DNA of 64,000 bases from Schmidtea polychroa. Its lineage: Eukaryota. The position numbers and the translations under genes were made by a program. The DNA lies in contig CM097887.1 in the NCBI GenBank assembly GCA_044892525.1, positions 74,524,001-74,588,000 of the forward strand, written 5' to 3'. Each line of letters opens with the position of its first letter. Position 1 is the first letter of the stretch. Of this stretch, positions 4,490 through 4,746 are shown piece after piece. The notes under the pieces were generated by a model. The model did not search any database and was not told where the DNA came from. It was given only the letters and a program-made list of their open reading frames with translations.

Positions 4490-4742
4490 GTTTTGTGCAT
4501 AAGGTTGGGAAAACAATTTTGATAAGGGACCTAAGAAATCGGACACACACCTTCTATCGGTAGTCCGTGAACCCATGGAGTACTCGACAATTATAGTGCC
4601 TTGATGCGCTCACTTTTTGCGAGTACTCAACCCTTGGTACAGTACCAACGTTGATTACTCAACGGGTACCAAGCGGAAAGACAATGTTGCATGTTGGGTT
4701 ACGCTGGTAACAGCACTTAAACATTCGACCACCAGTAACCCG

Positions 4743-4746
<4 letters not shown>
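4490..4746 (+). ncRNA. Structured repeat, copy 1 (putative structured RNA or element terminus)
   Basis: Stems CGGAC/GTCCG, GAGTACTCG(4578-4586)/CGAGTACTC(4620-4628), CTTGGTAC(4633-4640)/GTACCAAG(4666-4673), CGTTG/CAACG, GCTG-GTAA-CAGC and GGGTTAC/GTAACCC. Homologous to 29870-30129. Confidence 0.55.

Follow-up and report, generated by a model that had tools for sequence, protein, structure and literature searches.

The window analysed here, 64,000 nucleotides of a Schmidtea polychroa contig (CM097887.1, positions 74,524,001 to 74,588,000, forward strand), carries exons of a TAF2-like gene (8897-16201, plus strand) and of a carboxypeptidase (32336-52056, minus strand), an ORF with a DnaJ domain (19068-19424, plus strand) and several mobile elements. 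Among the latter are two ORFs for DDE_3 (Tc1/mariner-like) transposases (36610-37662 and 5276-5638, both on the plus strand) and two solo LTRs, also on the plus strand: copy 1, whose 3' part occupies 1..4745, and copy 2 at 21503..30128. The copy-1 LTR is interrupted, at a TA run, by a DNA transposon with terminal inverted repeats (407-3044, minus strand); the transposon's 481-aa ORF has no Pfam match, and we take it to be hAT/Buster-like. Nested in the copy-2 LTR is a small, unrelated Gypsy element (approximately 24404-27438, plus strand) with 97-bp identical direct repeats and zinc knuckle, protease and RT domains. Both LTRs contain a structured domain on the plus strand. That of copy 1 (4498..4745), delimited by alignment and pair counts, has the lineage-A form of about 250 nt and ends at the LTR end; that of copy 2 lies at 29871..30128, and the two are about 80% identical over 250 nt. 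A preliminary description of this DNA had reported the structured sequence as present twice. Those two copies stand, but they are not the only ones: a third, decayed core of another lineage lies at 18128..18287 on the plus strand (16-family model, E 2.8e-6, outside the training set), and there are thousands in the genome. The third copy has an LTR-like end, TCCAACA, at 18362-18368 and a possible start, TGTTGGC, at 17463; an intact target duplication is absent.

Copy 1, a member of Burro lineage A1, was delimited by BLAST to 14 other copies, by its TGTTGGGC start and by its CCA end. Its start lies 3,628 nt before the first base of the window, and its target duplication, ATAT, lies within (TA)n. 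Copy 2, of lineage A2, has an AATA target duplication. More generally, the copies reach upstream by about 5.5-5.8 kb, up to the TGTTGGGC LTR start; their termini are TG...CA with a short inverted repeat, and an exact 4-bp target duplication flanks 10 of the 11 A1 copies and all 6 of the A2 copies for which both flanks are available. All share one 3' end base. In family 1 that end reads TAACCC plus ACCA at 28 of 30 loci, with GCCA and ATCA at the other two; in family 2 it reads TAACCC plus ACCA at 29/29 parsed loci (30 examined). The homology between the window copies had been thought to stop after CCAA. It actually ends with the LTR itself, at CCA (4745 and 30128); the A after that already belongs to the target-site duplication, as its first base, and the (TA)n that follows copy 1 is simply its insertion site. 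When A1 and A2 LTRs are compared, the best-conserved stretch is the last 280 nt, at 79%. The copy-1 LTR also holds two GC-rich ORFs on the plus strand, neither belonging to a Pfam family. One (3222..3581; 119 aa stop to stop) contains the motif RKRGRPRK, presumably AT-hook-like; the other (3852..4346; 164 aa) is coiled-coil-like by eye, has a basic C-terminal stretch and is open in most lineage-A1 copies. Both are possible accessory proteins.

Searches of the window's own genome (781 Mb) with both copies gave 2,565 first-look candidates for copy 1 and 2,345 for copy 2, the best 40 at 96-100% identity. One copy runs from a 5' LTR through a primer-binding site (PBS) and a 25.1-kb internal region into the start of a 3' LTR, the two LTRs being 99.6% identical over 2,154 nt. 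This internal region has matches to zf-CCHC, the Monjiviricetes fusion protein, protease, RT, RNase H, integrase, ankyrin, TRAF/MATH and BIR, in ORF pieces whose frames are interrupted by stops; its first long ORF starts about 3.5 kb past the PBS. Direct repeats thus flank a PR-RT-RH-IN internal region, with a PBS following the 5' LTR, as in Gypsy elements. Burro (GYPSM1) is described as a giant planarian Gypsy-like element with an internal region of approximately 25 kb, more than 30 kb long with its LTRs and present in thousands of copies; the same passages list Gag zinc knuckles, an env-like fusion protein between gag and protease, RT/RNase H/integrase, ankyrin, MATH/TRAF and BIR domains (PMC6431247). 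Here, too, the internal region is about 25 kb long, a fusion domain lies between gag and pol, and MATH/TRAF, BIR and ankyrin are all present. Both window copies are the LTR 3' ends of Burro-type giant env-bearing Gypsy retrotransposons, an assignment that rests on domain set and size as given in those passages on Burro (PMC6431247). The earlier suspicion of a retroelement was thus well placed, and the container is identifiable as Burro, even though the family had gone unrecognised and indeed matches no Rfam family. A stand-alone ncRNA or a LINE-type 3' replication signal, also proposed at the time, does not fit a fold that lies directly 5' of a PBS.

In three more families the internal region spans 22 kb and is matched by the gag-zinc, fusion, PR-RT, RH-IN and TRAF queries, whereas the BIR query found nothing there; relative to the first element their RTs are 74-79%, their Gag-zinc regions 39-40% and their TRAF regions 32-35% identical. 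Another, high-copy family (L165-L167, G000:C3 112.12-112.14 Mb) has elements of 14.5 kb whose LTRs measure 1.8 kb; it shares the PBS, the 3' junction and the core. Six Burro protein queries gave zero tblastn matches in the copy of it that was tested, and no pol was detected. It is likely to be a non-autonomous partner of Burro, presumably of the kind called LARD-like. Internally deleted elements with common LTRs also form a tandem array (G000:C1 39.42-39.47 Mb, L011-L014) with a period of 15.8 kb and repeats that are 99.98% identical. At five other loci (L008, L024, L116, L118 and L189), the LTR of one family is inserted within some 10-100 nt of the core in an LTR of a different family, perhaps a sign that sites close to the fold are open or preferred.

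The fold has a fixed position with respect to the primer. In 5' LTRs it ends 7-9 nt ahead of the PBS, which is complementary to the genome's own tRNA-Pro(TGG) over 11-24 nt in all 10 copies examined. The tRNA-Pro(TGG) genes form a tandem array with a 475-bp period near 130.90 Mb of G000:C1 (L465-L467), and this is the primer tRNA of the Burro clade; the tRNA-Pro 3'-end pattern has 2,190 matches genome-wide. We picked 30 LTR ends, from other lineages, solely because they adjoin a tRNA-Pro PBS, and in 28 of them the core lies 133-168 nt before the end; the two without a parsed core are a decayed and an interrupted LTR. The genome has 3,729 sites that match a 17-nt core pattern, a lower bound on total copy number, and 1 that matches its reversed control. 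An anchored motif grammar parsed 196 copies, of which 110 were unique, and these fell into 16 clusters with 38-83% pairwise identity. The 16 family representatives were thus selected with a grammar that required the motifs; for one of the comparisons L133 was used in place of L162, which is truncated after P3. Outside this genome the pattern matched at least 116 metagenome and at least 120 viral stretches. Among the 238 motif sites listed for these, 6 had one further motif and none had two, and the 16-family model gave at most 20.5 bits on 100 of the at least 116 metagenome loci, whereas training copies score 133 and the third copy in the window 29.6. We read the metagenome and viral matches as chance.

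Is the conserved block an RNA structure? The stems named in the preliminary description are all found where it placed them, and the compensatory changes it cited are real: GAGTACTCG/CGAGTACTC becomes GAGTGCTCG/CGAGCACTC, and CTTGGTAC/GTACCAAG becomes CTTGATAC/GTATCAAG. Two such changes alone are modest evidence, and larger sets confirmed the covariation. Across 28 subfamily representatives of lineage A, 94.0% of cells pair, compared with 31-40% in slid controls, and 12 of 44 pairs show two-sided change; there are 66 two-sided cells, against 25.5 after shuffling (0/500 shuffles reach 66). The plus-strand orientation proposed at the outset was also borne out. The plus strand folds better than the minus strand in both copy 1 (z -2.43 vs -0.91) and copy 2 (z -2.56 vs -1.24), and G-U pairs are tolerated on the plus strand only. 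Across the 16 families the main helices covary strongly, as judged against shuffle controls that ignore relatedness by descent.

The fold comprises three helices, P1 to P3, and a terminal domain, described here in copy 1 (plus strand throughout). P1 (4540..4567) consists of a CGGAC/GTCCG stem, an internal loop, an ACC/GGT stem and the conserved loop TTCTATC (4552-4558). In the 16 families 46/48 of its cells pair (39.9 shuffled), GAC/GTC changes to (C/G)GG/CCA in two of them, and the loop starts with TTC in every one. P2 (4578..4628), a long and variable stem, includes conserved AGT/GCT pairs together with a 1x3 U/CAC internal loop (4594-4597, 4608-4613); 29 of 32 cells pair in its apical part (17.1 shuffled) and 72 of 96 below the U/CAC loop (62.0 shuffled). 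Within the 16 families the AGU/GCU pairs are invariant, with zero covariation, and the covariation of the CC/GG pairs is not significant. P3 (4633..4673) has an outer stem (78/80 cells pair, 49.7 shuffled), an 8x1 internal loop AGTACCAA/G (4641-4648, 4665) and an inner stem CGTTG/CAACG (45/48, against 33.9); the bulge reads AGTACCAA in 13 families and is a one-letter variant of it in the remaining 3. The terminal domain (4696..4745) contains the hairpin GCTG-GTAA-CAGC (4703-4714), with its GNRA loop, and a GGGTTA/TAACCC stem that closes 4 nt before the LTR end. This 3' domain varies by lineage, but stems that close at the same distance from the LTR end recur, with a pair probability of at least 0.9 in only 8 of 13 folded copies. 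The GNRA hairpin had been called conserved, which holds for lineage A (27/28 copies, with four different loop sequences) but not for other lineages, where it is absent. Similarly, CGGAC/GTCCG, GGGTTA/TAACCC and GCTG/CAGC are retained as reported, but within lineage A they show no two-sided change; CGGAC/GTCCG does covary across distant families. Three unpaired motifs are near-fixed across the 16 families: the P1 loop UUCUA, the P2 1x3 U/CAC bulge and the P3 8x1 AGYACCAA/G loop.

These data bear on the suggestion that the conserved blocks act as DNA, either as downstream promoter elements or as integrase or strand-transfer determinants, with the stems a by-product or a means of pacing strong-stop synthesis. 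The region near the 3' end of an LTR often holds downstream promoter elements, the blocks lie at a near-constant distance from the LTR end, and the terminal CCA and inverted repeat would be fixed by the needs of integrase. Nevertheless, two-sided changes in P1, P2 and P3 across families that are 38-83% identical, G-U pairs confined to the plus strand, and a GNRA loop kept through four different sequences in 27/28 copies all point to RNA, and we regard a DNA role for these blocks as very unlikely.

Rfam has no counterpart of the fold. There were 0 matches at the gathering threshold in the window, and only chance matches at E values up to 10 for both copies and up to 1 for seven loci. The structure is also undescribed in what our literature searches found: the passages that mention Burro in PMC11410931 and PMC8532177 do so without an RNA fold, and the original Burro paper (Grohme et al. 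2018) and its supplements may bear on the matter. Burro itself is already known; the clade-wide RNA fold is real, unclassified and absent from Rfam.

What might such a fold do? Its sequence context predicts that it belongs primarily to the 5' leader of the genomic RNA. It is likely to be needed in cis, because its place beside the primer site is fixed and an element with no detectable Burro proteins still has it; the core is also kept between elements whose Gag-zinc regions are 39-40% and RTs 74-79% identical. Moreover, retroviral and Ty1 leaders carry structures at the same position, which is why we read the fold as part of an R-U5 leader. In the retroviral leaders discussed in PMC11181671 and PMC12789967, structured elements beside the PBS serve primer annealing, initiation of reverse transcription and recognition by Gag, and the account of Ty1 in PMC3592414 includes a cis-acting structure adjoining the primer site. 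Our preferred explanation, to which we give about even credence, is that the fold acts in cis as an R-U5 leader signal for RNA packaging and the start of reverse transcription. Transcription would start upstream of the fold, placing it within R-U5 of the genomic RNA. The Gag and reverse transcriptase of the element would recognise P1-P3 through a surface made of the UUCUA loop and the U/CAC and AGYACCAA bulges, so that the RNA is packaged and copying begins. With the terminal stem closed 4 nt short of the LTR end, the primer site, 11-13 nt beyond the stem, would stay exposed. Solo LTRs, the window copies included, would be passive carriers of the fold. In two contig sets that we guess to be RNA, the cover of one locus (L152) starts about 300 nt before the LTR end, but one of the two has a loose end there and another contig continues upstream, so we give this start no weight; none of the loose contig ends listed for L152 has a poly(A) tail.

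Two more specific readings were rejected. A primer activation signal (PAS) is not general: the PAS-like motif GAACCC occurs in only 9/16 families, and families lacking it have the same tRNA-Pro PBS. In the families that have the motif it may act in this way; lineage A has two 7-nt matches to the T-arm region of tRNA-Pro. A 3' tRNA-like structure of the retroplasmid or mascRNA type, or tRNA mimicry, was discarded as well: the 7-bp stem and ACCA are confined to lineage A, other families end in AACA, and there is no Rfam tRNA match.

Lying at the start of a very long and AU-rich leader, the fold could instead regulate translation or protect the RNA against decay or silencing by the host, as an IRES-like or nuclease-blocking leader. 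Burro RNA goes up upon loss of SMEDWI-2, according to the passages on Burro in PMC8532177, which would suit shielding. Against this, the first long ORF is about 3.5 kb past the PBS and the fold is kept in the element with no detectable Burro proteins, and we hold a role in translation or shielding to be highly improbable.

A doubtful though more tenable proposal concerns the 3' end of the RNA. The fold would be a long structured R region like that of HTLV-1 and BLV, bringing a U3 poly(A) hexamer near the cleavage site, binding a Rex/Rev-like export protein, or both; the export protein would perhaps be one of the small basic LTR ORFs. Indeed, AATAAA or ATTAAA lies 401-450 nt before the LTR end in 11/30 PBS-bearing copies, compared with 0-4 in every other 50-nt bin, and neither window copy has a hexamer in its final 330 nt; in copy 2, AATAAA hexamers occur upstream of the domain at 29699 and 29739. 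The two small ORFs of the lineage-A1 LTR have basic motifs, as this explanation would want. There is also precedent, since the account in PMC12789967 gives HTLV and BLV an R of more than 200 nt, a structure proposed to bridge the distance, and a RexRE in the LTR. Yet the hexamer cluster fits ordinary cleavage 15-23 nt downstream equally well: normal use of the hexamers would put the fold in U5, and action from afar would make it a long structured R. Copy 2 has a GU-rich tract after the hexamer, the 11 hexamer-bearing copies come from related families, 19/30 have no hexamer at 401-450, and the small ORFs, unlike the fold, are not common to A2 or the 1.8-kb LTRs at the DNA level.

The leader signal that we favour must also be weighed against catalysis, since the preliminary description had raised a ribozyme-like function. 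The fold would then be a new class of catalytic RNA whose cut in the transcript sets the 5' or 3' end of that transcript, or else the plus-strand primer. Near-fixed unpaired nucleotides on covarying scaffolds would be expected of such an RNA, and the tip of P1, GCC-UUCUAUC-GGC, presumably resembles P3/L3 of HDV-like ribozymes; there is also a weak possible 4-bp pairing between the P1 internal loop and a conserved RUYRU after P3. The HDV test gave no support. HDV-like ribozymes require a G in L3, which forms a reverse wobble with U (PMC3774820, in its treatment of this loop), and that G is found in 0/16 loops; there is no conserved catalytic C in J4/2, before RUYRU and the putative P2 strand, and the putative P2 pairing itself is wobble-rich and broken in many families. 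An HDV-like ribozyme was rejected on these grounds. No Rfam ribozyme appeared at gathering or E-value thresholds, and resemblances to group I/lariat-capping and hairpin ribozymes were dropped by eye and by Rfam. We know of no need for self-cleavage in LTR elements. Several tertiary contacts were tried and set aside as well: docking of UUCUA on TAGAA at the LTR start failed, with TAGAA following TGTTGGGC in only about 14/30 junctions and yet the loop fixed; a pseudoknot between the P1 loop and GAA after P1 has too short a linker in several families (by eye); and a GTGA/TCAC pseudoknot lacks GTGA in most families.

What keeps a catalytic role under consideration is the 3' junction. A polypurine tract before the 3' LTR was not found in any of the 6 junction types checked, which have 5-8 purines in the last 15 nt. 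Instead, 1,144 junctions between the internal region and 3' LTR in the genome (control 0; L548-L577 examined) have a short hairpin together with a GC block, 7-9 nt ahead of the TG of the LTR, a distance that mirrors the 7-9-nt spacer between LTR and PBS. In all 6 junction types the GC block can pair with the PBS, at -13 to -20 kcal/mol, with 0-42 of 1,000 shuffles as good. Both cDNA ends may thus carry long extensions, and the predicted pairing suggests circularisation of the genome or an unusual plus-strand primer. Even so, we consider it unlikely that the fold is a new-class catalytic RNA of the kind set out above. A wider conjecture, in which a new and perhaps catalytic class of functional RNA takes over a standard step of LTR replication in the Burro clade, the fold docking on or cutting a circularised genome and so defining an RNA end or plus-strand primer, is rather unlikely.

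Cis-acting RNA structures are well mapped for a few retroviruses and for Ty1, and we found none described for Burro. Here a large env-bearing clade, with thousands of copies and at least 16 divergent families, provides enough material for covariation to define a new RNA family, and three near-fixed loops are pointed to as its candidate working surface. With the purine tract missing, the fold and 3' junction block make plus-strand priming in Burro testable with short RNAs. Transcripts in a regeneration model could begin with the fold at thousands of solo LTRs, which matters for the annotation of planarian non-coding RNA.

Known systems offer partial parallels. HDV-like ribozymes of R2 and other non-LTR elements also nest a 3-bp stem, capped by a 7-nt pyrimidine-rich loop, inside another stem, whereas the Burro fold has no L3 G (16/16) or conserved catalytic C, an outer stem of only 3-5 bp, and an LTR host. 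HTLV-1 and BLV, as presented in PMC12789967, likewise have structure of more than 200 nt in the LTR, in a long R with a Rex response element, and in Burro, too, the poly(A) hexamer may be far upstream; by contrast, the small LTR ORFs of Burro are lineage-restricted and a Rex-like protein is only hypothetical here. The Ty1 5' pseudoknot, in the treatment of PMC3592414, is another cis-acting structure beside the primer site of an LTR retrotransposon, but it lies in the GAG coding sequence rather than the LTR, and superfamily and primer differ. Burro (GYPSM1) itself, in the passages of PMC6431247 devoted to it, has the same internal size, copy number and domain set as the element here; those passages are silent on LTR RNA structure, the tRNA-Pro primer, the 7-9-nt spacer and the missing purine tract, some of which Grohme et al. 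2018 may cover. The closest parallel in position is the retroviral U5-PBS/5' leader. The Burro fold is larger (215-270 nt), has no common sequence or Rfam match with it, carries a PAS-like motif in 9/16 families, and stands 7-9 nt from the PBS. In the systems treated in PMC11181671, the HIV-1 three-way junction with its PAS and the MLV U5-PBS with tRNA-Pro, the leader is likewise structured, covarying and directly upstream of the PBS and, like the Burro fold, it overlaps the integrase attachment end.
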